Shown piece after piece: positions 2,137 to 62,645 of a stretch of DNA of 64,000 nucleotides (the stretch's first letter is position 1; each line of letters starts with the position of its first letter). Both the position numbers and the translations under genes were made by a program. The notes under the pieces were generated by a model, which made no database searches, was not told the origin of the DNA, and saw nothing but the letters and a program-made list of their open reading frames with translations. Source of the DNA: Deltaproteobacteria bacterium. Its GTDB lineage: Bacteria; Desulfobacterota; Desulfomonilia; UBA1062. The DNA lies in assembly GCA_018434685.1 (NCBI GenBank), contig JAHDOV010000012.1:1590-65589 (forward strand). Reading direction: 5' to 3'.

Positions 2137-3249
2137 ATGAAAAAGACAGCAATCATTGTTGGCATACTCCTGATGTGCGCCAGCGCCTCTTTTGCCGACG
2201 AGGTCGATCAGGACCTTCCCAACCAGACAGCAGAGCAGCTCAAGGCAAACACCCGGGAGATGATCCGTCTCGGCATCAGCACCGACGAGGCCGTCAAGAT
2301 GACAAGGGCCATGGTGGAGAACAGGTTCCAGGTGGAAAACGCCGTTCAGGCCCAGGAAGTCGTCATGAACGCCAAGAAGCAGGGACTGCCCGCAGGGCCC
2401 GTCATGAACAAGGCACACGAGGGCATTGCCAAGAACGTACAGGCTGGCTCTATTGTTGCAGCAATGGAGAAGACCAGAGAGCGCTATGCCTATGCTTATG
2501 AAAAGGCAAAGACCCTGGGCATCGACACCAGGGAGGTCGCGCCCACCGGTGATGTTATCGCAGAGAGCATGGCAGCGGGGCTGACACGAAGAGATGCGGA
2601 TGTCATCTGCGACAGGCTGCAGACCAGAGACCGCCTAAGGACCACAGACACGGATCAGACGCCGGCTCAGGACCGACAGAGAGACCGGGAGCAGATCCAC
2701 AAGGTTGCTCAGGAGAGCTTCATGACGGTTCGTGAGATGAACCGGCTCGGGGTTCCCTCTGATGTCGCCTCAGACACCGTCTGTCAGGCACTGGAAAACG
2801 GCTATCAGGCCCGGGACATGGAACAGTTGAGAAACACCTTCATGAACAGGGCACGGCAGGGAGACCCGGCACAGCTCGCGAAGACCTATGCACATGCCAT
2901 CAGGAACGGCGCCGGGGCCCAGGATCTGGACTCTCCGGGAAGATTGGGCAAGGGCTGGTCTGATGAGGCATCCGGATCCGGCATGTCCGGCGGACCGGGA
3001 CAGGGAACCGGCTCAGGTGCAGGCAGCGGTGGTCCGGGCAGTGGCGGCAGTGATTCCGGTGAGGGTGCCGGTGGTCCGGGCAGTGGCGGCAGTGATTCCG
3101 GTGAGGGTGCCGGTGGTCCGGGCAGCGGCGGCAGTGATTCCGGTGCAGGGACCGGCGGTTCGTCCGATAGCGGTCCCGGTTCTTCCGGCAGCGGCGCTGG
3201 CGGAGATCACGGCGACGGCGGCGGTTCGGGCAGTGGCGGCAAAAAATAA
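2137..3249 (+). CDS. Secreted protein with two internal ~40-aa helical repeats and a C-terminal Gly/Ser/Asp-rich low-complexity tail
   Basis: It starts with a signal peptide (MKKTAIIVGILLMCASASFA). The motifs REMIRLG...TDEA and REMNRLG...SDVA repeat, and the C-terminus is (GGPGSGGSDSGEGAG)n. Confidence 0.6.
   Translation: MKKTAIIVGILLMCASASFADEVDQDLPNQTAEQLKANTREMIRLGISTDEAVKMTRAMVENRFQVENAVQAQEVVMNAKKQGLPAGPVMNKAHEGIAKNVQAGSIVAAMEKTRERYAYAYEKAKTLGIDTREVAPTGDVIAESMAAGLTRRDADVICDRLQTRDRLRTTDTDQTPAQDRQRDREQIHKVAQESFMTVREMNRLGVPSDVASDTVCQALENGYQARDMEQLRNTFMNRARQGDPAQLAKTYAHAIRNGAGAQDLDSPGRLGKGWSDEASGSGMSGGPGQGTGSGAGSGGPGSGGSDSGEGAGGPGSGGSDSGEGAGGPGSGGSDSGAGTGGSSDSGPGSSGSGAGGDHGDGGGSGSGGKK
3028..3153 (+). 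repeat. Three tandem copies of a 42-nt unit encoding GGPGSGGSDSGEGA
   Basis: The unit ggtggtccgggcagtggcggcagtgattccggtgagggtgcc occurs three times in a row inside the CDS. Confidence 0.7.
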
Positions 3250-45526: not shown

Positions 45527-45779
45527 GACACCCCCCTTTCCAATCAGGAAAACACAACAATCAAAAAACTCACTTTATGACAAAAAGTATGTCTCCATAT
45601 TTACTACAACGGAATAAGTATTTCAACGTGCCATGAGTTCAAAGATAGAGGCGGGAGGGGATACCTGAGAAGGCTGCCACGCATATTCCATACTGTCTCC
45701 TGCCCCATCCACCCGGAAAAACAATCACCGCAGCAAGGGTTATCCGGAATGCCTATGTCATGCCCGCCCGGTAGACAGT

Positions 45780-45995
45780 CGTATAATCCTTTGACAAGAC
45801 AAGAAAACAGCGCTAGATATCAGCTACATACACCTTCTGGAATTTCCGCACCTGTGATTTTTTACCTGGATAACCATGATGAACTGTTTGATGAGTGCAC
45901 ACACAATACCCATCTGCACCCCTGATGCACGGAGTGCGTGTTTTTTCAGGCGCTAGGCTCTCGGCGCTGGGTTGAAGGAACAACTCCATTGCCCT
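45780..45995 (+). repeat. Copy A of a ~210-bp repeat carrying an outward-facing sigma70 promoter
   Basis: It is about 93% identical to 49268..49490. Confidence 0.75.
45791..45819 (+). promoter_or_regulatory. Pc-like sigma70 promoter, copy A (TTGACA-17-TAGATA) facing the cassette ORFs
   Basis: A consensus -35 TTGACA at 45791 is followed by a 17-nt spacer and a TAGATA -10 element. A perfect TATAAT lies just upstream at 45783. Confidence 0.45.
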
Positions 45996-46611: not shown

Positions 46612-46672
46612 CTTATAACAAGCCACTTCAGCCGACGGCCTACGGCCGCGGCTGACCGGCACGTTATGCGTT
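46612..46672 (+). repeat. attC-like recombination site
   Basis: The sequence TATAACaagccacttcagccgacggcctacggccgcggctgaccggcacGTTATgc has complementary ends and internal imperfect inverted repeats. Confidence 0.55.
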
Positions 46673-46680
46673 AATGGAGT

Positions 46681-47256
46681 ATGAATAATATGCAAAAGAA
46701 TATACTGAGCATTCTTTTCATTTTTGTTTTGTTATTAGTGATCGCAGTCTCAGTAATTCAAAATGATTCCTTATCAGTTTCTGATGCTATTTACGCCCTC
46801 ACCGCATTGATAATTCTTTGGTATTCATACGAGACGGCAATAATGCGTAACGAGATGATTAAACAGAATAGAATGTTAATGAGGCCGGTCTTAAATATAA
46901 AATTGGATAATAATAATGTTTTTTATAATAACGATGGTTCGGGACCTGCTCTCAATATTAAAGTTACTGACTTCAAGCCGACTATTAAAACTTCCACAGA
47001 TAATACTTATTACGAAATACAACCAGTCTCATATATTCCTCAGGGTGGTAGTGATAAAATCATCATTCATAGTGGTAATTCTGAAACCGGGGCAAAAGGT
47101 ACTGTTCCAGAAACTGACATGTTTTTTGGAGTTGGGAAGCAAGTTCAAATTACTATCGTATATGAGGATATGGAAGGCACTGAATACGAAACCAAGATCA
47201 CAACTAATTCAGGTAACGTTAATAGTGTTTCATTCAAAAGGTTAAAAAGCGCATAA
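46681..47256 (+). CDS. Cassette ORF: hypothetical membrane-anchored protein (191 aa)
   Basis: A low-GC ORF bounded by attC-like sites. Confidence 0.5.
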   Translation: MNNMQKNILSILFIFVLLLVIAVSVIQNDSLSVSDAIYALTALIILWYSYETAIMRNEMIKQNRMLMRPVLNIKLDNNNVFYNNDGSGPALNIKVTDFKPTIKTSTDNTYYEIQPVSYIPQGGSDKIIIHSGNSETGAKGTVPETDMFFGVGKQVQITIVYEDMEGTEYETKITTNSGNVNSVSFKRLKSA

Positions 47257-47310
47257 CCAGGTCATCCACCGGACGGCTTATAGCCGCCGGTGATGCCCAC
47301 GTTATGAAGA
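47252..47310 (+). repeat. attC-like recombination site
   Basis: The sequence cATAACcaggtcatccaccggacggcttatagccgccggtgatgcccacGTTATga has a caccggacggc/gccgccggtg stem with unpaired bases. Confidence 0.55.
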
Positions 47311-47343
47311 CAATTATCTCAGCTGTACTTTTGAAAGTGATAA

Positions 47344-48201
47344 ATGAACTCCTTCAGTACTAGAGAAATAGCCGTTTCGTTCTGGACCATCGCCTTTTTT
47401 GGATTGGCTCTCTCCACAAAGGGTGTGCGGGAGAACGCTTTGGCACTGGTTAGGCAAGCTTTCCTCTCTAAGCTAATTTTAGTATGGTTGTCATTAGCTT
47501 TATATTCTGTGATCTTGGTTCTCTGTTTTCGAGAACTGGGCTTTTGGACAATCGGCCTTCTTAAAGACACACTAATCTGGTTTGTATTTTGCGCCTTAAC
47601 GTATCCTTTTCAGTTCCACGACCCACAGAAAACACCCCGAGTACTCAGGATACTCATACGCGACAGCTTGTCCGTACTCATTGTTGTTGAAATCCTTGTG
47701 GAAACGTATACGTTCTCATTGCCGATCGAATTAATTATTGTTCCTACCGCTACTTTTATCGCGACGATGGGTGCGGTAGCCGAGATGCGAGAGGATCACA
47801 AGCCAGTCGCCAAAATACTTGGCAATATTCAAGCGATCTTAGGATTCGTCCTCATCGCGATTGTGGTTAGACGGGCAGCAACAGATCCATACCACAGTTT
47901 TGTTGCGGCACTTTTATCTTCGTTGATTGTTGTGGTTCTAAGCCTCTCGACATGGCCCTATATTTGCTCTCTGCGGTTTGTTTTCGCATATGAAGGAATG
48001 TTGTGGCGGATTGGCTGGAAGAAAAACGTATCCAGGGTATTCAAACACTTTGCGGTATTTCGCATCATGCGGCACCTTAAGTACCGGTCGACGGCGGTTG
48101 CACCTTTCATTCGCAGGAACGCCTTCAAGCTAAATGATGTTGTCGATAAGAATAGTCTTGAAGCACTTTTGAGTGAGGACCGGAATAGGGCAAGTGAATA
48201 A
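47344..48201 (+). CDS. Cassette ORF: hypothetical polytopic membrane protein (285 aa)
   Basis: A low-GC ORF. Confidence 0.5.
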   Translation: MNSFSTREIAVSFWTIAFFGLALSTKGVRENALALVRQAFLSKLILVWLSLALYSVILVLCFRELGFWTIGLLKDTLIWFVFCALTYPFQFHDPQKTPRVLRILIRDSLSVLIVVEILVETYTFSLPIELIIVPTATFIATMGAVAEMREDHKPVAKILGNIQAILGFVLIAIVVRRAATDPYHSFVAALLSSLIVVVLSLSTWPYICSLRFVFAYEGMLWRIGWKKNVSRVFKHFAVFRIMRHLKYRSTAVAPFIRRNAFKLNDVVDKNSLEALLSEDRNRASE

Positions 48202-48204
48202 ATA

Positions 48205-48345
48205 ATCGGGGTAAATAAATGGGGTCGGCATAAATAAATGGGGACGAGAAACTGGGAGTCAGGTCTTGCATTATAACATTTTCATCACCCCTGTTTATTA
48301 ATGTGGCACTGCAAAACCTGAGCCCATCTTTTTAGGAGGTTTTAT
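48205..48345 (+). repeat. Composite element: MITE-TIR footprints (aaataaatggggtcgg, two copies) plus a long attC-like palindrome
   Basis: A 14-bp inverted repeat, gtcaggtcttgca ... tgcaa(a/g)acctga(g/c)cc, flanks a ~40-nt spacer at a cassette boundary. Confidence 0.45.
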
Positions 48346-48346
48346 T

Positions 48347-49078
48347 ATGGTTGCTCTATTAATTATTTCTGCATTTATTATACAGTTTTTAATTTTATTT
48401 TTGTTTAAAGAAGCTAATACAATCAAAAGGGCATTTATTAATATTATTATTAACACATGCATACTTATAATTACTCTATCTTTTATAGAAAACCATGATA
48501 CTAAAGGTGCAATAGTAATAATATGTGTGTTTTCTTATTTTTTTAGCGGCATATTAATTTATTTCGGATTAATATCTAACACAGAATCTCAAGCTAATAA
48601 TGCGATACCTGACCAAACAAACAAAACAAATCGTAATTATGCTAAAGCTTACCCGTCTAAATTATTTCCTGACTATCCTATAAGACCTCAAAATATTTTC
48701 ATTTTAGATGAACCGATTTGGGACCAGAGTTTGGCCAACATAAGTATGATAGGTCTTTGCATCACCAATGAATTCCAAGTGTGGAAGAATAGCGTCGGTA
48801 ATTATAAGTGGCCATCTTATGCTAATGAAGAACTTTCAGCGCTGATTAATGCATATCATCAAATGCAAGCGAAAGTGCCAAATGGAATAACTCATACCGT
48901 AAATGTTCAGGAGGTGAGAAAGTTAGCTATGTCTTATATAAATCTCTTAAGGAATGATGATGTTCTTTACAGTGAATTTATGGCAGGGCAAATAACCTTG
49001 TTCAATTTATCACTTGACTTTGCAAATACCATAGCTTGCGGTGGAACATTACAAACCAGTTTAGAATGGTATGGCTAA
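48347..49078 (+). CDS. Cassette ORF: hypothetical membrane protein (243 aa)
   Basis: A low-GC ORF (~30% GC) following a taggagg RBS. Confidence 0.5.
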   Translation: MVALLIISAFIIQFLILFLFKEANTIKRAFINIIINTCILIITLSFIENHDTKGAIVIICVFSYFFSGILIYFGLISNTESQANNAIPDQTNKTNRNYAKAYPSKLFPDYPIRPQNIFILDEPIWDQSLANISMIGLCITNEFQVWKNSVGNYKWPSYANEELSALINAYHQMQAKVPNGITHTVNVQEVRKLAMSYINLLRNDDVLYSEFMAGQITLFNLSLDFANTIACGGTLQTSLEWYG

Positions 49079-49099
49079 TTTACAAGATACACAATTGGA

Positions 49100-49185
49100 A
49101 CCCGGGCTTATGGGGTCAGGTCTTGCATTATAACATTTTTATCATCCCTGCTTATAAATGTGGCATTGCAAGACCTGACCCCACC
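49100..49185 (+). repeat. Long palindromic attC-like element
   Basis: The structure is ggggtcaggtcttgca-N40-tgcaagacctgacccc. Related copies occur at 48265 and 58160. Confidence 0.45.
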
Positions 49186-49267
49186 TTTCCAAGGAATACA
49201 GTAATATAAGGGAGAAACAGGGGACGTCCCCTACATGCACCACGGACGTCCCCTACATCCCCGACTG

Positions 49268-49490
49268 ACAGCCGCATAATCCTTTGACAAAACAGGAAAA
49301 CAGCGCTAGATATTAGCTACATACACCTTCTGGAATTTCCGCACCTGTGATTTTTTACCTGGATAACCATGATGAACTGTTTGATGAGTGCACACACAAT
49401 ACCCGTCTGCACCCCTGATGCACGGAGTGTGTGTTTTTGAGGCGCTGGGCACCAGGCGCCGGGTTGAGGGAATCGCTCCATTGCCTGGCA
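49268..49490 (+). repeat. Copy B of the ~210-bp promoter-bearing repeat, lying 3' of the IntI remnant
   Basis: Near-identical to 45780..45995. TTGACA is at 49284 and TAGATA at 49307. Confidence 0.75.
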
Positions 49491-49541
49491 GAATCGCTGT
49501 AGGAGCGGCTTCAGCCGCGACAATCCGAGAACTATGCAGTT

Positions 49542-49763
49542 CCCCCTGTTCATGACATGGGTGTAGATCATGGTGGTGTTCACGCTCTTGTAGCCGAGCA
49601 GTCCCTGCACTCTACGGATGTCATACCCGTCTTCCAGCAGCCTCGTGGCAAAGCTGTGGCGGAAGGTGTAGCAAGCGATGGGTTTATGGATCGTGGCTTT
49701 TTTCGCAGCTGATTCTACCGCCTTTTGAAGGCTGCCTGCATCTATGTGATGACGCAATGTGCA
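49542..49763 (-). pseudogene. intI: Integron-integrase-like tyrosine recombinase, C-terminal catalytic fragment only (5'-truncated)
   Basis: The fragment [64 protein letters not shown] carries the box II HxxR...Y region, closely matching the IntI/XerD consensus RHSFAT.LL.(S/E)[20 protein letters not shown]. The N-terminal ~250 aa are absent. Confidence 0.6.
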
Positions 49764-49879
49764 TTTTTTAAAATACGGTTTCATTCCGTAAAATGTAATA
49801 TATATCACAAAATACGGAATGGTTCCGTATAGTAATTGTTGGCCTTATGAACCACAGTTTGATTTGAAGGAGGCTCCTC

Positions 49880-51283
49880 GTGGAAATTCCATTAAGTGCT
49901 TTATTTGAAAATGTTGGATTAATCGCAAATGGGAAACCTGTTTTAAAGAATATTCGTAGAATTACTCCAACTCGAATTATAGATTTATGTGATCAAGCTT
50001 CTGAGATAACCTTTTATGAAAATCTTATTAATTCCAAGTCAATTTTTTCACATGCTGCCTCTGCATCAATTGGTGTTGATCGATCACCTTGTGAATGCCT
50101 TGAATGTCGTTTAAACAAAGCTTATGAATTAGCCCAGTTTGCAGCACTATACAGTGATAAAGTGTATATTAGAAATTTTTTTAATGATTACAGAAGTCCA
50201 AGCTATATTAGTAATTTCAAAAAGACTGATTTAACTGAGTCGCTAAAAAATGATTTAATTATATACACCGCACTTCTTCCTCTATTGGAAGCAGGTAAAG
50301 TTGAAATGGTATCATTTGGCGACATATGCCCGCATTGTTTGAGCATAAGAGCACTACATGAAAATTCCAAAATAGAATATGAAAAAGCGTCCAAAGAACT
50401 TGAAAGGAGGTTTTATAAAGAAGTTACTTTTTCATTGCATTATGAAGATGGTGAAGTTGCAATATCTGCCTCCGGGCCAGATTTTTTATTACCCCATGGG
50501 ACACTGTTCTTGGTTTACAGAAATCCGACCGACATCTTACCACAGAATCCTAAACTGATTGAAAAAGCAAAAGCTTCTGGTGAGATTAAGTTAACTTCAA
50601 ACCAAGCTAAAGAAATTAAAGCTGCAGCAAAATTTTCAAGCAGGATTACTGATAGTGTTGCTTTTGAGTTGGGCGGTGCAAATTTCCTTAATTCTTATTA
50701 CCTGTCTGATAGTGAGCTTGAAATAGATTTTATTTGTAGTTTAACAAGAGATCCTTTTGCACGTAGGCGTACTTCTCTTATGGGGAGATACCTTACTTGT
50801 CTAGTCCCCTTTATTGACTCTGTTAATATTATAGATTTATTGACTCTTAGAGAAAGAGAGCAGGAAGCTTTTATATTATTTAGAACAGCTTTGTCTAAAG
50901 CCATAGATGAATACAAAACTCAGGGTAAATCATTTACCGAAAGGGATGCCCAGGCAGTTTACTCTGATATTATACAACCAAGATTGGCGGAACTTGACCT
51001 TAGAATCCGCAAAGCTAAAACTTCATTTAGAAAAAGTGGCTATCGCAAATTAGTTGGTTGGGCAGGAGCTATATCAGTTGGACTTTATACTGGTATCTTT
51101 ACAGCAAATCCTTTAGCTGGTGTTGCAGCCTTCAGTGCTGCTAAATTAGGATCTGAAGTGATAGAAGATACTATGTCAAAGAGTGATGTAACAGAAGAAA
51201 TTAAGGGAGATAATATGTTTTTTTTGTGGAAGGTAAAGGAGCTTTCAAAAACATCGTCTATCAACGGACCAGTATTTAATTAA
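49880..51283 (+). CDS. Cassette ORF: hypothetical 467-aa protein with Cys motifs (CECLECR; CPHC) and a C-terminal hydrophobic helix
   Basis: It is the first ORF after the IntI remnant, follows a aggagg RBS, and is low in GC. Confidence 0.55.
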   Translation: MEIPLSALFENVGLIANGKPVLKNIRRITPTRIIDLCDQASEITFYENLINSKSIFSHAASASIGVDRSPCECLECRLNKAYELAQFAALYSDKVYIRNFFNDYRSPSYISNFKKTDLTESLKNDLIIYTALLPLLEAGKVEMVSFGDICPHCLSIRALHENSKIEYEKASKELERRFYKEVTFSLHYEDGEVAISASGPDFLLPHGTLFLVYRNPTDILPQNPKLIEKAKASGEIKLTSNQAKEIKAAAKFSSRITDSVAFELGGANFLNSYYLSDSELEIDFICSLTRDPFARRRTSLMGRYLTCLVPFIDSVNIIDLLTLREREQEAFILFRTALSKAIDEYKTQGKSFTERDAQAVYSDIIQPRLAELDLRIRKAKTSFRKSGYRKLVGWAGAISVGLYTGIFTANPLAGVAAFSAAKLGSEVIEDTMSKSDVTEEIKGDNMFFLWKVKELSKTSSINGPVFN

Positions 51284-51287
51284 GAAA

Positions 51288-51350
51288 TAGTCAACAAAAG
51301 GTTGCATCCGACGCGCTTTGTGCGCGGCTGACCCTTATCGTTATCTGTAA
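51288..51350 (+). repeat. attC-like site
   Basis: The sequence aacaaaaggttgcatccgacgcgctttgtgcgcggctgacccttatcgtt contains an imperfect palindrome. Confidence 0.45.
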
Positions 51351-51366
51351 AGGAAGATGCATATAG

Positions 51367-51975
51367 ATGAGAACAAATAGTCGTTTGATCTTGACAACAT
51401 GTTTATTAATCGTGCTCTCGTTAATAGTTTATTCCTCAATAGGTTATTCATTTATTTTCAATTGTCCCGAAGTCATTATTGTTGATAGAAGTGCAAATGA
51501 AAGGGATCTATTCTCTCTTTTGCAAGTTATTGTTGGTGGTTCAATTGGAATTATTGGTAGTGTCATTGGTGCTGTTATAGTCTCCTTATTAAGATCACGA
51601 AATGAAAGAAGAACCTTTCTACGATCTAAGTCAGAGGAAATACTCTATCTCGCTTATCAATGCGATGAGTGGCTTGATAAGTTGATTCTTGGCTATCTAA
51701 TCCAAGGAGATATTGATACAATATTTAAGAAATATCCTGTTAACAGGCTTAAGGTTCTTCAAACGAAATATTTCCCAACTCTTAAAGATGATGTAGACTC
51801 TCTCCTTGCTTCTGTAAAAGAATTTCGGACAGCTATCATATCAGAACGAAATGATTTCATTAAAGTCAAAGAATATAGCCCAGAATTTAAAAAGAAATAT
51901 GATCCATTACAATCTAATGTCTTGAAATCGATTGCAGAGATCGAGAAGAAAGTTGCTTTATTAAAATATGTTTGA
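51367..51975 (+). CDS. Cassette ORF: hypothetical protein with 2 TM and a cytoplasmic domain (202 aa)
   Basis: A low-GC ORF. Confidence 0.5.
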   Translation: MRTNSRLILTTCLLIVLSLIVYSSIGYSFIFNCPEVIIVDRSANERDLFSLLQVIVGGSIGIIGSVIGAVIVSLLRSRNERRTFLRSKSEEILYLAYQCDEWLDKLILGYLIQGDIDTIFKKYPVNRLKVLQTKYFPTLKDDVDSLLASVKEFRTAIISERNDFIKVKEYSPEFKKKYDPLQSNVLKSIAEIEKKVALLKYV

Positions 51976-51998
51976 CCAAACAATAAGCAAGGAAACAG

Positions 51999-52055
51999 AT
52001 AACCAAAGAATGCACCGGACGGCTTTCAGCCGCCGGTGATCCTTGGCGTTATGCA
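51999..52055 (+). repeat. attC-like site
   Basis: The sequence gATAACcaaagaatgcaccggacggctttcagccgccggtgatccttggcGTTATgc. Confidence 0.55.
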
Positions 52056-52124
52056 TCACTGCTGATGACATATTAACCTTGAGAATGACTGAACATGGTG
52101 AACATTGAAGGAGGAATACTAATG

Positions 52125-52826
52125 AAATATTCTCCAATGTTTATAATTTTATTCTTATCAATTTTTGCCACATCTTGGGCTGCTGAAAAAAAAGAAACAT
52201 CGCATTATGAGGTCGTAGACGAATATATAAGGTCACTTGGAACGACCTATAATTTACAGCAGGTGGCAAAAAAGGATATAGAAGTTGATAATAAATCTGA
52301 TGATCCTGCCATTGCGGGTTTGATGTCTGGCATCCGTAACAGCACACGAGTAAAACTGGAACTCAATTATAGCATTCAAAAACTCAAAGGAATGAACCTC
52401 AATAATCCTTTTGACACCTTGCTTCCTACAACTATTGATTTCTACAAAAATAAACATGAACTTCATGATGATTTAATCAAAATAGCAACAAATCTTTTAT
52501 CAGGTCCCAAACCTGGAGTTGATTACGGAAAAATGGCTGCGATAATGCCACAGATAACGGCTCAAGTTGAATATATCGATGAATCTATCTTCCAATTAAT
52601 GCCTATGGTGTTTGCTCTACTAATAGATACGAAACCAGACAGTGAAGGGCACATGAGTCATCTGAACATAAGCACTGCACAGAAACTAAAACTTATTGAT
52701 AGTATAAATGGGTATTTCGGTGAGAGCTTGGATCAGAAGGATAAGAACTGGACTGTGAGTTCTGCTGCTGTGCTAAAAGCATATTTATTAAAGGATTATA
52801 AATGTACTGATGAATGGCATAAATAA
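52125..52826 (+). CDS. Cassette ORF: hypothetical secreted protein
   Basis: It has a signal peptide (MKYSPMFIILFLSIFATSWA). Confidence 0.5.
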   Translation, partial: KYSPMFIILFLSIFATSWAAEKKETSHYEVVDEYIRSLGTTYNLQQVAKKDIEVDNKSDDPAIAGLMSGIRNSTRVKLELNYSIQKLKGMNLNNPFDTLLPTTIDFYKNKHELHDDLIKIATNLLSGPKPGVDYGKMAAIMPQITAQVEYIDESIFQLMPMVFALLIDTKPDSEGHMSHLNISTAQKLKLIDSINGYFGESLDQKDKNWTVSSAAVLKAYLLKDYKCTDEWHK

Positions 52827-52842
52827 AAAACTGCATAACAAA

Positions 52843-52900
52843 AGGATGCACCGGACGGCTATCAGCCGCCGGTGATCCTTGCCGTTATGAGGTAATCTAC
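52843..52900 (+). repeat. attC-like site with two extrahelical bases
   Basis: The sequence cATAACaaaaggatgcaccggacggctatcagccgccggtgatccttgccGTTATga. The ends ATAAC and GTTAT are complementary, and ggatGcaccggAcggc pairs with gccgccggtgatcc with two unpaired bases. Confidence 0.6.
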
Positions 52901-52916
52901 AATAAAGACAATTCAA

Positions 52917-53459
52917 ATGAATCAATTTGAGAAACGAAATGAAGTAGCAATATATTGGTTCAATAAGTCATCTGACTTAAGAGGATCTGCTGCTGACCTA
53001 TGGACAAGTCAAGAGGAGAAACAATCAGAATCAATAGTGCAAAAGTGTGGACTTGGGCAAGGTTTTATTATGGCTGCGGCAGTGGGATCGGTATTTTGGA
53101 TGCTTTGTGGGATGTCTTTAGAGTTACAATATAAAGCCATTATTGTTGCAAAAGGTGAAAGAGCAGTACATTCTCATGACCTTGTTAAGTTGGCTAAATT
53201 GGTTGGATTACATGTTGATAAGAAGACAGAAACTGTTCTGAAGATATTGACCGAATCAATAATCTGGTATGGTCGATATCCAGTACCCAAAACTCAAGAG
53301 CCTATGGAAAACCTTCATGATCTCTTAGATGATTTTTTTTATGATGATGCACCACCAGGTAAGTTCAAAATTCGAAAAAGGAATGTTTCTCTCAGTTGGA
53401 ATTTATTTAATAGGTTATGGTTAGATGGAAGCAAAATTTACTGGGAATACACCTCATAA
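52917..53459 (+). CDS. Cassette ORF: hypothetical protein (180 aa)
   Basis: A low-GC ORF. Confidence 0.5.
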   Translation: MNQFEKRNEVAIYWFNKSSDLRGSAADLWTSQEEKQSESIVQKCGLGQGFIMAAAVGSVFWMLCGMSLELQYKAIIVAKGERAVHSHDLVKLAKLVGLHVDKKTETVLKILTESIIWYGRYPVPKTQEPMENLHDLLDDFFYDDAPPGKFKIRKRNVSLSWNLFNRLWLDGSKIYWEYTS

Positions 53460-53514
53460 CCAGCGCATCCAGGCGGACGGCTTGCAGCCGCCGCTGATGC
53501 ACAAGCGTTGTGCG
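53453..53514 (+). repeat. attC-like site
   Basis: The sequence CATAACcagcgcatccaggcggacggcttgcagccgccgctgatgcacaagcGTTGTgc. Confidence 0.5.
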
Positions 53515-53523
53515 AAAACTCAT

Positions 53524-54156
53524 ATGAAAATAGATACGATAAAAAATAATGCCCGATTAGTTTGGCGTTACCTTATTTCACGTGACTTGTCCTTCTGGTC
53601 AGTTGTGGCAACGCTTCTCCTTGTACTCATCACCCTGGCTTTAGCCGTCACCACCAAACAAATGGCTGATGTAATGTCAAGAGACTATATGGTTCGCACA
53701 ATGCCAGTTTTCCGAACGACAACGCCGCAGGTGACGACTACGGATAATGAGACAATTTTAACCTTCATGGTCGCAAACGTAAGCCAAGGCATCGCTAAGG
53801 GTACAGTTCATAATGTTTATATTGAAGACACTATTGGCAATATAGTTCCTGTGCAAAATGTAGTTGTCGGAAAGGGCACTTGGGCGAAGAAGCTGAATGA
53901 GATACCAATAGACTATGTTTCAGGTACAAAGGAGATTATCAAGCTGACTTGGCCGTTGAATTCGGTATCGCCACAAAAAATAGAGACGGTCGTTATTGTG
54001 TTGGAATTCACGACACTTTTCGACGAAAAACTACACAGATACATTGAAGGCTTTATTTATGAACCTGATCACAATAACCTTGATCCAATGACGCAGGATA
54101 GGCTTTCGCTTGTTCTTGAAAAAATCGAGAAGAAGACCGGAAGGAAGATTAATTAG
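53524..54156 (+). CDS. Cassette ORF: hypothetical membrane-anchored protein
   Basis: An N-terminal TM helix (FWSVVATLLLVLITLALAV). Confidence 0.5.
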   Translation: MKIDTIKNNARLVWRYLISRDLSFWSVVATLLLVLITLALAVTTKQMADVMSRDYMVRTMPVFRTTTPQVTTTDNETILTFMVANVSQGIAKGTVHNVYIEDTIGNIVPVQNVVVGKGTWAKKLNEIPIDYVSGTKEIIKLTWPLNSVSPQKIETVVIVLEFTTLFDEKLHRYIEGFIYEPDHNNLDPMTQDRLSLVLEKIEKKTGRKIN

Positions 54157-54159
54157 TGA

Positions 54160-54230
54160 GAAAACGCACAACCTCAGCATCCAGGTGGACGCGGGCTTTC
54201 GCCCGCGCCACTGATGCTGGCCGTTCGACG
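54160..54230 (+). repeat. attC-like site
   Basis: The sequence acaacctcagcatccaggtggacgcgggctttcgcccgcgccactgatgctggccGTTCGAC. Confidence 0.5.
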
Positions 54231-54242
54231 GAATTTTAACTT

Positions 54243-54770
54243 ATGAGTGATTTTACAGACAGATATATCATAGATGGGAAATTTGATATTTGCCGCCTGA
54301 TCAATGACGATTTTGTTCTAGCAATAAAGGAAACATGGAATAAGAAGCATTATACTTCATGTTTAAAATTACTTGTTTCCTTCATTGATACTATGGCTTT
54401 TGTTGAAAATGGTGATAGCTCAAGTGCTTTCTTTAAAAAGTGGGTAAGTACGTATGTTGATTTGGCTCCCATAGGTATTTCTCCTGATGAGTTATGGGAA
54501 CACAGGAATGCTCTTCTTCATATGTCTACGTATGATTCTCGCAAGGTATTGTCTGGGGCTATCACGCGATTAGTTCCCTATGTTGGTTCCTCGGAGCCTT
54601 CAATAAACGAAAATACTGCAAAGTATTATTCACTGTATTCGCTAATTATGGCTGTCATGCAAGGCTTGGGTAAGTATATTTTGATCATGGAAAATAATAA
54701 TGCCATGCGGCAACGCTTCTGTGACAATTATGAAAAAACAATATCTGATTCTCATTTTATCATACCATGA
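54243..54770 (+). CDS. Cassette ORF: hypothetical protein (175 aa)
   Basis: A low-GC ORF. Confidence 0.5.
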   Translation: MSDFTDRYIIDGKFDICRLINDDFVLAIKETWNKKHYTSCLKLLVSFIDTMAFVENGDSSSAFFKKWVSTYVDLAPIGISPDELWEHRNALLHMSTYDSRKVLSGAITRLVPYVGSSEPSINENTAKYYSLYSLIMAVMQGLGKYILIMENNNAMRQRFCDNYEKTISDSHFIIP

Positions 54771-54771
54771 A

Positions 54772-54832
54772 GCGCCGAACCAGCCACTGCAGCCGACGCG
54801 TTACCCGCGCGGCTGACCGGCACGTTGGATTC
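54772..54832 (+). repeat. attC-like site
   Basis: The sequence ccgaaccagccactgcagccgacgcgttacccgcgcggctgaccggcacGTTGGat. Confidence 0.5.
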
Positions 54833-54934
54833 ATTTAGATAAATATGAGTGAGAAAGGAGGTTGTATTATGAAAGAAATATTTTATGAGGGTTATAAAAT
54901 TACCGCATCACCTGATCAATTAGCAGAGTATAAT

Positions 54935-55168
54935 AAATGGGGTCGGACCAAGATAACTAATTGAAATGATGTTTAAAAGTGCTTTAAATTGGCCTTTTTT
55001 TGACCTTAGAGCCGCCATTTCAGGCCCGAAAAAGTGGTTTTAAGCTTTACCCCAACTTCTTACAGTGCCCATTTTGACACCGAAAAGCATGTTCTAAGCC
55101 CTGAAAATACCTGTTTTTGGAACATAAATAAAGATATATCAACAAGTTGACTTGGTCCGACCCCATTT
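54935..55168 (+). mobile_element. MITE-like non-autonomous element (~234 bp) with 19-bp perfect terminal inverted repeats
   Basis: The TIRs are TAAATGGGGTCGGACCAAG and CTTGGTCCGACCCCATTTA. It has no ORF and contains internal duplications. Confidence 0.6.
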
Positions 55169-56164: not shown

Positions 56165-58135
56165 ATGCAAATGAAGAAAAGGTTATTGATCACATGTTTG
56201 TCTCTTGTTGTTCTGATTATGAATGCAGGGTGCGGTGGAAACGATGGCAAGACGGTTGACGATACCACCCCCATTGCCAACACCGCTCCCATTGCCGATG
56301 CCGGTTCAGATCAGGAAGTCTCGACGGGCGCTCTGGTGACGCTTGATGGCAGCGCAAGCAGTGACGCAGATGGGGACGCGCTCACGTATGTGTGGTCTTT
56401 GACTTCCGCACCATCTGGAAGTTCAACCGTTTTGACGGCCGCCGATACTGCCGGGCCGACCTTCACTCCCGATTTTGATGGGGAATACGTCCTGAGCCTG
56501 GTTGTCAACGACGGCACGATTGCCAGTCCGGCGGATACCATGACGGTTTCCGCATCCACTGCGAATTCAGCGCCTGTGGCCGATGCCGGTTCAGACCAAA
56601 CGCTTGTATTCGGCACGCCTGCCACGCTCGACGGCAGTGCGAGCAGTGATACGGATAGCGACTCGCTCACCTATACCTGGAGTTTTGTGTCCGTGCCGGC
56701 GGGGAGTGCGCTGACCCAGCTGACGGATGGCGCCACTGTTGCGCCAAGCTTTACGCCCGATGTAATGGGCGCATATGTCGTCCAGCTGATCGTCAGTGAC
56801 GGGCTGATCGAGAGTCCTGCCGATGCCTTGACGGTCAGGGCGGTGTCTCCGTTCATCGCAGGGATCGCGACGACCCCCCAGCAGGTTGATGGAGATCTCT
56901 TCAGTTCAATAGATGAACCCCAGGTGGCAATTAACGACTCAGGGGACATTGTAGCCGTGTGGATTACCGACGATGGGGGCGAAGAGGAAAGTGTCTACGG
57001 CAATCGCTACGATGCCGTCGGCGGAACCTGGACGACTCCGACGCTGCTGGAGACCAACGATGTTGCCTACCCGGAATCACTTGAGCTGGCCATTGACGCC
57101 TCGGGCAATGCGGTTGCTGTCTGGCGCATGTATAATTACTACGGAATTAACCACATTTACGCCAACCGTTACGATGCCGGAGACGATGCATGGGGAACCG
57201 CCGTGGTTCTCGATACGACCACGCAAGACACCTCATATCCGGATGTCGGCATGGACAGCGCGGGGAACGCCATCGCGGTTTGGCTGGAAACCCTGCCAAG
57301 TGGCAATGAGGCCATTATATCCAGGCGGTATGACGTCAATTCCGACACCTGGGTTGCGTCAGAGTCGTTGGACTACCAGACGGTCAATCAATGGGAGCCG
57401 CGTGTGGCGGTCAACGCCTCCGGTAGCGCGATCGCGGTGTGGAGCCAGCAGTATGGCCCTCTGGGGAACGAAATAGACGTTTACGCCCAACTCTATGATC
57501 CGGACACCGGTTGGGGTGCGGGTCAGCGCCTCGATGCCCTGCCGGGGGATGCTATGCATCCAGCTCAGCCGGCCATCGATGCTGCGGGAAATGCCGTGGT
57601 GATCTGGAAACAGAACGACGACGACAACACCCCAATGACAGAGAGCCTGTATGCCAATTTTTACACCGCCGGAGACGGCCTCTGGGGAGGCAGCGTGCTT
57701 CTGGAGACCCTTTCCGACCGAGTGGAATCGGCGCCTCAGGTGGCCATGGACGGCAACGGGAACGCCATGACCGTCTGGACCCACTATAATTTCACCCTGG
57801 ATCGGGATGTTTATGCCAGCCGCTACGATGCGGCGGACGGCTGGGGAACTCCCGTACTCCTCGAGACGGATACGGCGGCCGCCTATAATGCGGAGGTGGT
57901 GATGGATGGCAGCGGCAATGCGCTTGCCCACTGGGAGCACCATCTTGGCGCCTATTCCAGCGCCCCGGCAGTCCCCGTTATCAATCGTTATGACGCGGCC
58001 ACGGACAGTTGGGGAGGCATGGAGCAACTGGACGATCGGGGCAATGAATCCGCCATAGCTGCCAACGCATCCGGCCAGGCGGTGATCATTTGGGTAAAAG
58101 ATTATGATTACGTTTATTCAAGCCGGTTAGAATAA
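56165..58135 (+). CDS. Lipoprotein with two PKD-like domains and a 7-repeat (beta-propeller-like) C-terminal region
   Basis: It has a lipobox (MNAGC) and two IADAGSDQ...LDGSASSD.DGD.LTY.WS units. Seven repeats of ~45 aa each contain (D/N)xxGNA(V/I)AVW. Confidence 0.7.
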   Translation: MQMKKRLLITCLSLVVLIMNAGCGGNDGKTVDDTTPIANTAPIADAGSDQEVSTGALVTLDGSASSDADGDALTYVWSLTSAPSGSSTVLTAADTAGPTFTPDFDGEYVLSLVVNDGTIASPADTMTVSASTANSAPVADAGSDQTLVFGTPATLDGSASSDTDSDSLTYTWSFVSVPAGSALTQLTDGATVAPSFTPDVMGAYVVQLIVSDGLIESPADALTVRAVSPFIAGIATTPQQVDGDLFSSIDEPQVAINDSGDIVAVWITDDGGEEESVYGNRYDAVGGTWTTPTLLETNDVAYPESLELAIDASGNAVAVWRMYNYYGINHIYANRYDAGDDAWGTAVVLDTTTQDTSYPDVGMDSAGNAIAVWLETLPSGNEAIISRRYDVNSDTWVASESLDYQTVNQWEPRVAVNASGSAIAVWSQQYGPLGNEIDVYAQLYDPDTGWGAGQRLDALPGDAMHPAQPAIDAAGNAVVIWKQNDDDNTPMTESLYANFYTAGDGLWGGSVLLETLSDRVESAPQVAMDGNGNAMTVWTHYNFTLDRDVYASRYDAADGWGTPVLLETDTAAAYNAEVVMDGSGNALAHWEHHLGAYSSAPAVPVINRYDAATDSWGGMEQLDDRGNESAIAANASGQAVIIWVKDYDYVYSSRLE

Positions 58136-58275: not shown

Positions 58276-58420
58276 TCATGCGAAAAAGCACCGCATACAA
58301 TTGTAGGCCGGGGTGGTGACTAAGTCGGCTCCCTGATATCCTGCAAAGACTCTGGATTCCCGCCTGTTCGCGGGAATGACTGATGTGCCCTTTTTGATGG
58401 TATAACTGGGGTCGTATAAC

Positions 58421-58612
58421 TGGGGTCGGACCAAGATAACCAATTGATATAATGTTTAAAAGTGATTAAAAAGGGCCTTTTTTTGCCCTTAGAACCAGCA
58501 TTTTAGGCCCAAAACAGTGGCTCTAAGCTTTGAAAACACTTTTTCCGGCACATAAATATCAACATATCTGCAAGCTACCTTGATCTTACTCCAAAAAACA
58601 GTATTGGGACGT
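58421..58612 (+). mobile_element. Second, degenerate copy of the MITE-like element
   Basis: It has a left TIR TAACTGGGGTCGGACCAAG with a duplicated head, a shared core ...aagggcctttttttgccc..., and an eroded right end. Confidence 0.45.
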
Positions 58613-59590: not shown

Positions 59591-59786
59591 CAAGCACAGA
59601 ACAACAGCATCAGCGGACAACGTTCGCCATCTATAGGGAACCAGGGGACATCCACCAGCTCCCCTACTTATGCCTTCCCTGGAATACTCCTCGTAAATCA
59701 CGTCGGGTAAGCTGACTCCTTCCGGGGGGACACCTTCTCCCCGTCCCCTATGAAAACCTCTTAATCTCTTAAGACTTCAAAACCCC

Positions 59787-59856
59787 GAAAAACCCTCCGG
59801 GCGGTAAACTTTCATCTGCCCATTTCCAGCAAGTCTTATCTCGCCCATTGACAGAC
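59787..59856 (+). repeat. Copy 1 of a ~70-bp repeat (second copy at 62358..62427) flanking the cytochrome/rhodanese pair
   Basis: Copy 1 is gaaaaaccctccgggcggtaaactttcatctgcccatttccagcaagtcttatctcgcccattgacagac. Copy 2 is gaaaaaccctccgggtggtaaccttttatttgcccattcctggtaagttttatctctcccatgaacagag. Confidence 0.6.
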
Positions 59857-60081: not shown

Positions 60082-61326
60082 ATGAAGTATTGGCCTTTAT
60101 TTCTGTTTCTGACGGTTATGGTGCTCATTCCAGTGCCTGACTACGCCCCGTTGGCTGATTCCAACACCTGCGTCACCTGCCATACGGACGATTCCAAGCT
60201 GAAGGCTCTGGTCAAACCGCCCCAGATCGGAGGCGAGGGGGAAGGCTGAGCAGGCGCGCCTCCGCCGGTCCGGGCGGAAGACTACTACAAGGGCTACCTG
60301 ATCGATGCCGGGCTCCTCACCAAGGACCCCCACCTCAGCATGGGATGCCCCACCTGCCACCAGGGCAATGTCGATGCGCAGGATAAGGATGAGGCCCATA
60401 AAGGGATGATAAAACGTCCTTCCGACGATCTGAAATCCAGCTGCGGAACGTGCCACAGCACGATCACCGGCACCTATGGCAAGTCTTTGCACTACACCAC
60501 CCAGGGGCAGCGCCAGGGGGTCATCGGGAGATTCTCGAAGGCAGAGACGTCCACGTTCGACAAGAAGGTATTCGAGCAGTCATGCCGCAGCTGCCACGCA
60601 TCGTGCGGGGACTGCCATGTCAAGTCGCCTCCGGTCTCGGGAATCAGCGTGGGGCTCATCGCCGGCCACAAATTCGTGAAAAAGGACGAGGGCAAGACCT
60701 GCGCCTTCTGCCACGGCGGACGCGTCTACCCTGAGTTTACCGGTGAATACGGGGGATCTACGGATGTCCACTACCAGAAGGGCATGATGTGTGTGGACTG
60801 CCACCAAAAGGTCGAGCTGCACGGCGACGGCCAGAGCTATATGACCAAGCAGGACGTTCCACAGCGGCCCAAGTGTACCAACTGCCACGACGCCTACAAC
60901 TCGGACAAGGTACGCACACAGGTCGCCCATGATGTCCACAAGGACAGGGTGAGCTGCTATGGCTGTCATGCTGCAGGCCAATACCGAGACTGCTCCAGCT
61001 GTCATCTGGGTAAAGGCGCCACATCCAAGGCCGCCTTCACGCTGGGAAGGAACCCGCGCAACGTAAAGGAGGTCACCACATTGAGGCTCGTCCCTACGGT
61101 GCGGGAAACCTTTGCCAAGGCCGGCATCAAAATGGAAAACTTTGACGCACTTCCCAATTACTGGAATACGCCTGCCCACACTATCCGCAAGCGCACGGAC
61201 CGCACCCGTAACTGCGATTCCTGCCATGTGGATCGCAAGCATTTTTTAACAAAGGAAATGCTCATCAAGAACGGCTCCAAGGCTAATGAAGGACTGATCA
61301 TGGCACCGAAACCAATTACACAATAG
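60082..61326 (+). CDS. Periplasmic multiheme cytochrome c (11 CxxCH) with an in-frame TGA at 60247..60249 (candidate selenocysteine)
   Basis: An ATG follows a gggggatgaggtga RBS. The first segment is signal peptide MKYWPLFLFLTVMVLIPVP plus heme 1 CVTCH ...GGEGEG. TGA follows, and the same frame continues AGAPPPV... with 10 further CxxCH motifs. A stem (tccgcc-ggtccg-ggcgga) lies 11 nt downstream of the TGA. The downstream part alone (60340..) would lack any signal peptide. Confidence 0.5.
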
Positions 61327-61337
61327 GAGGGATAAAG

Positions 61338-62264
61338 ATGAGACGATTCGAATTATTGAGAGTATTGCTGGTGTTCCTGTTGATTGTAATGCCGGCAGCG
61401 GTTTTGGCCCAGGGGCTCAGTCCGATTACCTCAACCGATGAACTGTCAAAAAGCCTGAACGATCCCACTGTGGTTGTTCTCGATATCCGCAAGGTAGAGA
61501 ATTATAAGGCCGGCCACATTCCAGGCGCCATCGGGATTTTTTATAACAGCCTGGCGCCGGGTAAAGGAGACATGCAGAATCAGCTGCCCGAGGATGATGA
61601 TCTGATCGACCTGCTTTCCGAGAGCGGCATTCAGCCGGATTCACAGGTCGTGGTCTACGGCACGACAGGCACAGGGGCCGACCGGGTCAATGTCACCCGT
61701 GTGGCCTGGACACTGAAGTACGCCGGCCTTCAGAAAGTCTCTGTCTTGAGCGGCGGCATGGAAAAATGGTCGGTACGTGAGGAAAGAGAACTTTCCACGG
61801 AAACCGTAAAACCCAAAAGCAAGGACTATGAAGGCACGTTTAACAAAGGCGTGTTGGCCACAAAGGACTATGTAAAGGCTCAGATCGGCAAGTCCATCAT
61901 TGTTGATACACGTGAGCCCGCGTTTTTCAGCGGTGAGCAGAAACTTCCATTCGTGGCGAAAGCGGGCAGAATCAAGGGTGCGGTCAACCTGCCGACCATC
62001 CAGGTTTTCGACAAATATCCCCCCGGCGAACATATGGAGCAATGCTGCTGGACATACAAAGATGTCGATGCGCTCAAAAATATGGCCACCGGTGTTGTCG
62101 GCAACGACCTGACCAAAGAGATCATCGTATATTGCGACTCCGGCCGTGTAGCCAGCACCTGGTGGTTTATTTTAAGCGAAGTGTTGGGCTACAAAAATGT
62201 GAAGAACTACGACGGCTCGATGGAAGAATGGTCAAAGGATGAAACGGCTCCGATAGAGCCATAA
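61338..62264 (+). CDS. Periplasmic tandem-rhodanese sulfurtransferase
   Basis: It has a signal peptide, two rhodanese domains and the active-site loop IVYCDSGRVAS. Confidence 0.8.
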   Translation: MRRFELLRVLLVFLLIVMPAAVLAQGLSPITSTDELSKSLNDPTVVVLDIRKVENYKAGHIPGAIGIFYNSLAPGKGDMQNQLPEDDDLIDLLSESGIQPDSQVVVYGTTGTGADRVNVTRVAWTLKYAGLQKVSVLSGGMEKWSVREERELSTETVKPKSKDYEGTFNKGVLATKDYVKAQIGKSIIVDTREPAFFSGEQKLPFVAKAGRIKGAVNLPTIQVFDKYPPGEHMEQCCWTYKDVDALKNMATGVVGNDLTKEIIVYCDSGRVASTWWFILSEVLGYKNVKNYDGSMEEWSKDETAPIEP

Positions 62265-62272
62265 ATACAATT

Positions 62273-62314
62273 CACCGTCGGGGTTCTCCCTATTGAGAGG
62301 GAATCCCGACGGTG
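62273..62314 (+). terminator. Long perfect hairpin after the rhodanese gene (terminator-like, weak U tract)
   Basis: The stem caccgtcggg is followed by an inner stem ctccct/agaggg, then cccgacggtg. Confidence 0.45.
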
Positions 62315-62357
62315 CTTTACTTGATGGGGAAAAACAGGACATACCCCGAATGCTCCT

Positions 62358-62427
62358 GAAAAACCCTCCGGGTGGTAACCTTTTATTTGCCCATTCCTGG
62401 TAAGTTTTATCTCTCCCATGAACAGAG
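62358..62427 (+). repeat. Copy 2 of the ~70-bp repeat
   Basis: See 59787..59856. Confidence 0.6.
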
Positions 62428-62645
62428 CGGGCTTGAGGTGTGTTACCGGTTTTTTGTCGCGGCTGAAGCCGCTCCTCCAGCTCAGGGAGCACTATGGTAT
62501 CTCTTGTTCAGGACATTGCACGGTTCGGGATATCGGTGCTCGCGGCTGAAGCCGCTCCTACAGAGGCCGGATGTGGTTTTGAGAGAGTGGGCGATTCAGG
62601 TTTCGGATCTCGAGCGATCAGGTCCGGAATTACCGGTGAAAGGAA

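Follow-up and report, generated by a model that had tools for sequence, protein, structure and literature searches.

At positions 60082-61326 of the forward strand of a 64,000-nucleotide stretch of DNA (in the following called the window) from Deltaproteobacteria bacterium (GenBank assembly GCA_018434685.1, contig JAHDOV010000012.1, positions 1,590 to 65,589) lies a gene whose reading frame is interrupted by a UGA codon. Read through this codon, which very probably encodes selenocysteine (Sec), the frame gives a precursor of 414 residues for an exported c-type cytochrome with eleven hemes, and it is followed by a gene encoding an exported rhodanese. The frame begins with ATG 60082, 5 nt downstream of the Shine-Dalgarno sequence GAGGTG, and reads MKYWPLFLFLTVMVLIPVPDYAPLADSNTCVTCH...KPPQIGGEGEG-TGA-AGAPPPVRAED..., followed by ten further CxxCH motifs up to the TAG stop codon (61324-61326, included in the range given). 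The N-terminus is a predicted signal peptide of the general secretory type (approximately residues 1-25, 60082-60156), and homologues have equivalent hydrophobic N-termini with A-x-A-like sites at the end. The heme-1 attachment motif CVTCH (residues 30-34, 60169-60183) is located upstream of the UGA (codon 56, 60247-60249; context GEG-U-AGAPPPV), and its equivalent was found in all related loci with a readable N-terminus. Heme motifs 2-11, from CPTCH to CDSCH, are encoded at 60346-61227. The eleven CxxCH motifs start at residues 30, 89, 121, 168, 175, 207, 237, 265, 292, 304 and 378 and are accompanied by nine conserved histidines outside the motifs (H84, 106, 137, 196, 230, 247, 283, 286 and 366). 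Pfam and NCBIfam profiles gave only generic heme-motif matches to the cytochrome, far below the cut-offs.

Gene callers divide 60082-61326 into an open reading frame (ORF) of 55 amino acids and a second one of 306 or 328 amino acids. The first ATG after the TGA starts the sequence MGCPTCH and is situated within the heme-2 motif, so that the downstream part on its own would have no export signal. The initial annotation of this DNA had described the frame, the signal peptide, the position of the TGA, the eleven CxxCH motifs and the MGCPTCH start, and each of these statements agrees with the sequence. It had also called for a confirmation of the TGA; an independent assembly, made by Logan from run SRR13787007, shows no difference from the window over 8,312 bp, TGA included.

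Conservation of the in-frame UGA

A protein search of 5.8 billion proteins yielded 703 relatives, and a profile search of 1.84 billion cluster representatives yielded 1,038. The DNA of 80 related loci was taken, one genome per species; most of these are metagenome-assembled genomes labelled Syntrophales, Syntrophaceae, Smithella, Syntrophus or Syntrophorhabdaceae, and the codon corresponding to UGA-56 could be located in 79 of them. It was TGA in 78 of the 79 loci and CGA in one, and in none was it TAA or TAG. In tblastn searches of the related loci, query residues 1-414 or 6-414 were covered in a single frame, and in every locus in which the codon was located the signal peptide and heme 1 share their frame with the ten-heme body. 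The eleven CxxCH motifs are kept in 79 of 80 orthologues, and Lys41, which follows the heme-1 motif, is conserved in the same fraction (79/80). Even a homologue with 36% identity (locus L084) has an upstream in-frame TGA, here in the motif EGEG-U-AGTPPPV, and a rhodanese gene downstream. TGA terminates 22 of the 46 long frames in the window, showing that the standard genetic code is used.

A recent nonsense mutation in a pseudogene, or an error of sequencing or assembly, would explain the presence of the stop codon but nothing else speaks for it. Since the independent assembly is identical and the same TGA is present in 78 genomes that span 57-78% protein identity, with purifying selection on both halves of the gene, this explanation is refuted by the comparative data and its probability is practically nil. 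A conserved in-frame UGA with coding constraint in one frame on both sides of it, as seen here, is what is expected of a selenoprotein gene.

The boundary set by the gene callers could also be real, the 55-residue product being an exported monoheme peptide and the ten-heme protein being translated from an internal start. Databases at first sight agree with two genes, as the gene callers and GenBank list the 55-residue ORF and, separately, 'cytochrome c3 family' proteins of 306-351 residues. The best database relatives mostly have 340-351 residues and start a few residues past the TGA position, which is the pattern expected if gene callers hit a stop codon there, and many of the distant relatives from the profile search likewise begin just after the Sec site. 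The starts of these truncated proteins are scattered (MYKG.., MKAED.., VDAG.., VPPS..) and differ in position, which argues against a conserved internal initiation site; in the window, the first possible start is located inside the heme-2 motif as described above. Hemes are attached to c-type cytochromes by a periplasmic machinery, to which a ten-heme protein devoid of a signal peptide would have no access. Furthermore, two separate genes give no reason why both parts should share one frame, parted by a single TGA, in 78 genomes. We therefore regard two genes as highly improbable. Hundreds of database entries thus lack the N-terminal part with the signal peptide and are listed as 'cytochrome c3 family' proteins.

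Distant homologues were inspected for the residue at the Sec site. Cysteine was found exactly at the site, in the context x-C-G-G-x-x-P-P, in 7 of 42 distant full-length homologues and within two residues of it in about six more of the 42, and Cys codons at the aligned site, TGC and TGT, were confirmed in the DNA. Relatives with Cys at the position of Sec are the classical signature of a selenoprotein family, as judged by alignment. The comparison of homologues at this site had been proposed in the initial annotation, and it returned TGA in 78 of 79 close loci and Cys among the distant ones. Trp, Ser, Ala, Arg and Tyr, which also occur at the site, were considered as evidence against this Sec/Cys pair and dropped, Trp being an artefact and the others rare losses. 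The Trp belongs to protein P0002 (locus L085, 51-1313, from metagenome 3300068096 of the Joint Genome Institute (JGI)) and is an artefact because the DNA of the contig reads TGA; the stop had been rendered as W by the source. Searches for Sec/Cys pairs can be led astray by translations of this kind. With a dedicated annotation model, both the truncated entries and the JGI entry with UGA translated as Trp would be corrected.

The SECIS-like hairpin and decoding of the UGA

In bacteria, the selenocysteine insertion sequence (SECIS) is a stem-loop that begins approximately 11 nt past the UGA. A hairpin that resembles such an element, supported by the comparison of relatives, is encoded on the forward strand at 60261-60278, within codons 60-66. 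Its stem of 6 bp, which begins 11 nt past the UGA, is formed by the 5' arm UCCGCC (60261-60266) and the 3' arm GGCGGA (60273-60278), and encloses the loop GGUCCG (60267-60272). The initial annotation had pointed out stem, loop and SECIS-like spacing, all of which were found again. The six pairs are formed in 94.3% of the cells counted over 79 distinct sequences, and pairing drops to 35-62% once the 3' side is shifted against the 5' side by one to three columns. In five cells both sides have changed and are still paired; four loci have G-C at pair 31/40, and one has U-A at pair 30/41. In the loop, G+21 and U+22 (numbered with the U of UGA as 0) are invariant across the related loci, and both are unpaired in 79 of 80 local minimum-energy folds (median -11.3 kcal/mol). 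The distant homologue L084 has a hairpin of the form C5/G5, again with GU at +21/+22, and variant hairpins with a bulged 3' arm occur among the relatives. A stem-loop about 11 nt past the UGA that presents a conserved unpaired G-U at its apex is, again, as expected of a bacterial selenoprotein gene.

The SECIS of E. coli fdhF, the model bacterial element, likewise begins approximately 11 nt past the UGA, has a loop starting with GGUC and a conserved unpaired G and U; the hairpin described here is shorter, with 6 bp. The essential loop bases of fdhF are G23 and U24 in 1-based numbering, which is one base off G+21/U+22. Rfam does not contain a covariance model for the bacterial SECIS, hence no score could be obtained; neither a scan of the whole window at the gathering threshold nor one of 60200-60340 at permissive E-values found a SECIS or any other family, and permissive matches such as mir-598 were dismissed as noise. 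RNAalifold recovered the stem only in part from the 80-sequence alignment, and the pairs were therefore counted on a predefined structure.

The hairpin is situated within the codons of the conserved peptide PPPV(R/K)AE, and constraint on the RNA was separated from constraint on the protein by the third-position entropy of 86 conserved four-fold-degenerate codons. Against a median of 1.6 bits, Pro+4 and Pro+5, which are encoded in the 5' arm of the hairpin, had the lowest entropies of all, 0.27 and 0.53 bits. The integrity of the stem was also examined where the UGA is missing: the CGA locus is the only one in which stem pair 28-43 is broken, the Tyr-type relative has two broken pairs, and the Ser-type (TCA) relative has retained the stem, with one G-U wobble replacing G-C.

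The UGA could also be read through without selenium, by a near-cognate tRNA for Trp, Cys or Arg, or serve regulated termination, in which case it would determine how much of a small monoheme product is made relative to the full protein; in either case, read-through would be stimulated by the hairpin. It fits with this that the replacements CGA and TCA are single-base neighbours of TGA, and that the Sec machinery of the genome can be read only as far as the window extends. A leaky stop codon, on the other hand, fails to explain why TAA or TAG was found in 0 of 79 loci. In addition, the loop carries its GU at the position of SelB binding in E. coli fdhF, Cys-type homologues exist, and the host lineage is rich in selenoproteins. 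Taken together, this makes selenium-free decoding very unlikely.

Several observations weigh against the decoding of UGA-56 as Sec. Genes of the Sec machinery or a tRNA-Sec were not found by tRNA and Rfam scans of the 64 kb of the window, which is the readable part of the genome. The 81-nt single-sequence fold has a z-score of +1.31 compared to shuffled sequences and thus no extra stability in this G+C-rich DNA; the significance of the hairpin comes from the comparison with relatives and not from thermodynamics. Covariation is modest, with five cells in two pairs, because the element is so conserved, and the conserved peptide AGAPPPV could in part be the cause of the nucleotide conservation. 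Finally, the close relatives without Sec have Arg (CGA), Ser (TCA) or Tyr (TAC) at the site but never Cys, and two further close relatives have Ala according to the protein alignment; these proteins either do not need the residue or have taken on another function. The initial annotation had named a sense codon other than Cys or Sec in a dispensable linker of homologues, together with a genome devoid of Sec machinery, as observations that would speak for a pseudogene. This applies only in part: a few close relatives have such a codon, and the Arg, Ser, Tyr and Ala cases are rare derived losses.

Despite these points, it is very probable that UGA-56 is a Sec codon and that 60082-61326 is one gene. 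The initial annotation had preferred Sec to two genes or a nonsense mutation, and this choice is strongly supported by the TGA in 78 of 79 loci and the conserved hairpin with its GU loop, and further by the constraint on synonymous sites, some compensatory changes, the Cys-type homologues and the lack of a conserved start after the TGA. The single frame, the TGA, the hairpin, the Sec/Cys pairing and the linkage to a rhodanese are seen in the sequences, and from them we infer the insertion of Sec itself. The occurrence of 19 selenoproteins including SelD in Syntrophus aciditrophicus (PMC1794560) is in line with this.

The rhodanese partner and a putative function in sulfur or selenium reduction

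Twelve bases downstream of the cytochrome stop codon, ATG 61338 starts the gene of a tandem-domain rhodanese sulfurtransferase of 308 amino acids (61338-62264, forward strand). The product has a signal peptide, and both of its domains match Pfam PF00581 (E 1.5e-36). The catalytic loop CDSGRVAS (62133-62156) belongs to the C-terminal domain alone. In the N-terminal domain the corresponding place is not occupied by Cys, and judged from this the domain is inactive, as in classical rhodaneses. An exported double rhodanese with this loop had already been recognised in the initial annotation. Among the partner rhodaneses, this loop follows the conserved pattern YCD[ST]G[KR]. In NCBIfam no equivalog cut-off was attained by the rhodanese; below the cut-offs, it scored 92 bits with 3-mercaptopyruvate sulfurtransferase and 75 bits with ExtH (cut-off 200). 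Just past its stop codon, a long inverted repeat (62273-62314, forward strand) probably marks the end of the transcript. This region aligns at 78% with the corresponding part of locus L023, the closest relative; the inverted repeat was not called by a terminator scan, as it has no T-run.

Of the 76 Sec-type loci that could be assessed, 65 have a rhodanese gene next to that of the cytochrome, 61 directly downstream and four directly upstream. A multiheme cytochrome of approximately 650 amino acids comes next in the operon of 46 loci, and in the loci listed this is followed by a second rhodanese (approximately 250 amino acids) and then by a fusion of a multiheme cytochrome with a membrane cytochrome b of the formate dehydrogenase gamma type. 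Judged from this gene order, electrons may be led from the quinone pool into the periplasm. The genes found with that of a Cys-type relative encode a regulator of the ArsR type, a cytochrome b and a rhodanese. In all four close relatives without Sec the first rhodanese is absent and the 650-residue cytochrome follows directly downstream. Hypergeometric arithmetic gives approximately 0.001 for the joint loss of Sec and the first rhodanese, a value that is indicative only, the loci being related.

Further genes were observed in these operons. Those of the extended operon, for example L009 5122-7086 and 7079-7825 and L043 7949-9215, do not attain any NCBIfam cut-off. In L029 the 650-residue gene seems to be in two pieces on the same strand, and another in-frame stop is possible there. 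In six loci (L009, L013, L015, L021, L026 and L047) the Sec-cytochrome gene often stands beside a gene for a flavin adenine dinucleotide (FAD)-containing flavoprotein of approximately 520 amino acids with a twin-arginine translocation (Tat) signal, resembling fumarate reductase or flavocytochrome; a cytochrome of approximately 184 amino acids with several CxxCH motifs often adjoins, and sometimes an NrfD-like membrane protein.

Multiheme cytochromes that are selenoproteins are a known kind, represented by MccSep and by annotated Sec forms of the octaheme tetrathionate reductase (OTR) family. They were first demonstrated experimentally in 2026 with MccSep, the long-sought polysulfide reductase of Geobacter (PMC13510729). 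This protein of G. sulfurreducens, MccSep/ExtKL, is a five-heme periplasmic polysulfide reductase (PDB 9wt8) with U325 in a C-terminal immunoglobulin-like (Ig-like) domain (D-G-U-P), beside a Cys-ligated heme, and its gene cluster also contains that of the rhodanese ExtH (PMC13510729). Like MccSep/ExtKL, the protein described here is a periplasmic multiheme c-type cytochrome with a single Sec whose UGA was annotated as a gene boundary. Both genes have a SECIS-like hairpin just past the UGA and both families comprise Sec- and Cys-type relatives; a rhodanese, ExtH in the MccSep cluster, is encoded nearby in both cases, along with further cytochromes including a b-type membrane subunit. Nevertheless, a sequence relationship to MccSep was not detectable, the chains of 9wt8 and 9wt9 matching with E 0.03 and 16 bits over a single heme motif of 29 residues. 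Unlike MccSep with its five hemes and C-terminal U325, the cytochrome has eleven hemes and Sec56 after heme 1, in GEG-U-AGAPPPV; its family has no conserved heme-ligating Cys and occurs mainly in syntrophic Syntrophales, which are not known as sulfur reducers.

A 2026 review of prokaryotic selenoproteins names ExtKL (NF040886), GSU2204 (NF041027) and octaheme tetrathionate reductase (TIGR04315) as heme-related families, and lists TIGR04315 as including selenoproteins annotated in GenBank (PMC13188914). None of these three profiles matched the cytochrome at E <= 10. Membership in MccSep/ExtKL was ruled out since NF040886 did not match and neither five CxxCH motifs nor a Sec in a C-terminal Ig-like domain nor a conserved heme-ligating Cys were found, and by profile the cytochrome does not belong to TIGR04315 or to the GSU2204 family CXXCH selenoprotein either. 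The eleven-heme Sec family is absent from NCBIfam release 20, was not found by full-text literature searches, and does not appear in the table of the review as far as its text on 'cytochrome' and 'heme' goes (PMC13188914). It is distinguished by an N-terminal Sec, the lack of a heme-ligating Cys, a conserved SECIS of its own and a tandem rhodanese as partner. The combination of hemes, one Sec and a rhodanese in two unrelated families suggests convergent selenium/heme chemistry for chalcogen reduction.

The closest solved fold, found by a profile search of PDB, is that of the octaheme tetrathionate reductase of Shewanella oneidensis (1sp3), a reductase of sulfur compounds. It has eight hemes instead of eleven, an unusual active heme with lysine as ligand being among them; the N-terminal segment with heme 1 and Sec lies outside the aligned region, and a profile of the N-terminal half of the cytochrome alone no longer finds it. 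A single-sequence search of PDB gave nothing useful, and Foldseek against PDB gave nothing. In the Sud-Psr system of Wolinella, too, the gene of a respiratory reductase is accompanied by that of a periplasmic sulfur carrier of the rhodanese type, as is the case for ExtH in the ext cluster. In contrast to Sud-Psr, the partner reductase here is a heme selenoprotein and not a molybdoenzyme, and in contrast to ExtH, of whose cut-off of 200 bits it reached the 75 given above, the rhodanese is a classical tandem-domain enzyme with one active Cys.

For its eleven hemes the cytochrome has the nine conserved non-motif histidines listed above; besides these, the N-terminal segment offers just two conserved residues that could act as ligands, Lys41 and Sec56. 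Cysteines outside the heme motifs are missing from 62 of 80 orthologues, so that the selenol of Sec56 would be the only free chalcogen nucleophile in most of them. The selenol may be located at or near a heme that has no histidine as sixth ligand. These findings bear on a different role of Sec, namely as the sixth ligand of one heme (His/selenolate) in a protein that is chiefly an electron carrier, the rhodanese being a separate partner; Sec would then tune the potential of an electron-transfer wire or, in a variant, form a catalytic heme. The shortage of histidines and the lack of free Cys fit such a ligand, His/Cys-ligated hemes are recurrent in sulfur-metabolising multiheme enzymes (PMC13510729), and the mass per heme, approximately 3.9 kDa, is low, as is typical of electron carriers (PMC7096707). 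The Arg, Ser, Tyr and Ala found in relatives without Sec, however, are mostly incapable of ligating heme iron, and the Sec loop has low confidence in the predicted model. Moreover, we know of no natural selenolate-ligated heme. Ligation of a heme by Sec in an electron carrier is therefore unlikely.

We favour a catalytic role of Sec, and the most economical model is patterned on MccSep and on rhodanese chemistry. The ribosome would decode UGA-56 as Sec, guided by the hairpin 11 nt downstream, whose invariant loop G-U would be offered to SelB. The signal peptide would direct the cytochrome to export, eleven c-type hemes would be attached during maturation, and the selenol would be situated between heme 1 and the ten-heme body, in a loop rich in glycine and proline. 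The presumably co-transcribed periplasmic rhodanese would probably take up sulfane sulfur from polysulfide, thiosulfate or persulfide, or selenium, with its catalytic Cys and would hand it to the selenolate, giving a Se-S or Se-Se adduct, which electrons from the heme chain would reduce to sulfide or selenide. In most relatives, these electrons would come from the quinone pool via the further multiheme cytochromes and the cytochrome c/cytochrome b membrane fusion encoded downstream. Accepting this, the cytochrome is probably a periplasmic reductase of sulfane sulfur or selenium; that the substrate is sulfane sulfur in particular has a chance a little short of even.

Some findings do not sit well with this function. 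The locus in the window, like that of its closest relative L023, consists of the cytochrome-rhodanese pair only and does not have the quinol-linked partners. In the predicted model of P0002, a stand-in with 66% identity, the pLDDT (predicted local distance difference test) of the Sec loop is below 50. By the rule of thumb for mass per heme given in a review, the approximate value of 3.9 kDa falls among electron carriers and not among enzymes (PMC7096707). A periplasmic sulfur or selenium redox module had been suggested in the initial annotation; the conserved rhodanese and the fuller operons of the relatives fit this suggestion, and the module is what we infer from them as well.

A quite speculative combination of both roles, to which we give a small chance, is that Sec (Cys in distant relatives) ligates or overlies one of the two hemes without a conserved His and is loaded with sulfane sulfur by the rhodanese, providing syntrophs with a quinol-linked outlet. 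If true, this would be a natural heme-selenolate centre, and Syntrophus and Smithella, which are obligate syntrophs, would have an unassigned respiratory outlet to sulfur or selenium linked to quinol. The family is widespread in Syntrophales, which are regarded as obligate syntrophs, and a quinone-linked periplasmic reductase, if real, would be an unrecognised electron sink in them.

Repeats and base composition around the gene pair

The cytochrome-rhodanese pair is flanked by two copies of a 72-nt direct repeat (family D8; 59784-59855 and 62355-62426), which are 82% identical to each other and correspond to the repeat of approximately 70 bp mentioned in the initial annotation. A third copy was found neither in the window nor in 87 related loci. 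The G+C content of the pair is 53-59%, compared to 55% for the ribosomal-protein and RNA polymerase genes immediately downstream and 34-45% for a cassette region at 46-56 kb. A recent horizontal import, which had been considered possible from the repeats and the position at the edge of the cassette island, is thus not supported by base composition: the pair resembles the core genes and not the island. Even L023, the closest relative, has other genes around the pair, indicating that the pair moves over evolutionary time.

Other repeats of the window were recorded along with these. Units bracketed by direct repeats seem to be general in the region and not peculiar to the cytochrome pair: upstream units are bracketed by repeats at 54933-55048 and 58416-58531 (116 nt, 85% identity) and at 45767-45945 and 49260-49438 (179 nt, 94%), and one of these repeat-bracketed units is a PKD-domain ORF of 656 amino acids (56165-58135). 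An element resembling a repetitive extragenic palindrome (REP-like; GTCGCGGCTGAAGCCGCTCC...) is present at 62454-62481 and 62540-62563, just downstream of the second 72-nt repeat, and a third copy is inverted in the cassette region (49496-49523, reverse strand). Within ORF 2137-3249, three overlapping copies of 77 nt with a spacing of 42 nt occupy 3013-3173 and are 77-91% identical to the reference copy. In the cassette region, in a stretch with 34-45% G+C (46617-54826) and between short ORFs, two families (D3 and D4) of imperfect palindromes of 49-55 nt have the form ATAAC...CCGGACGGC-N-GCCGCCGG...GTTAT and look like the integron attC sites of a chromosomal cassette array.

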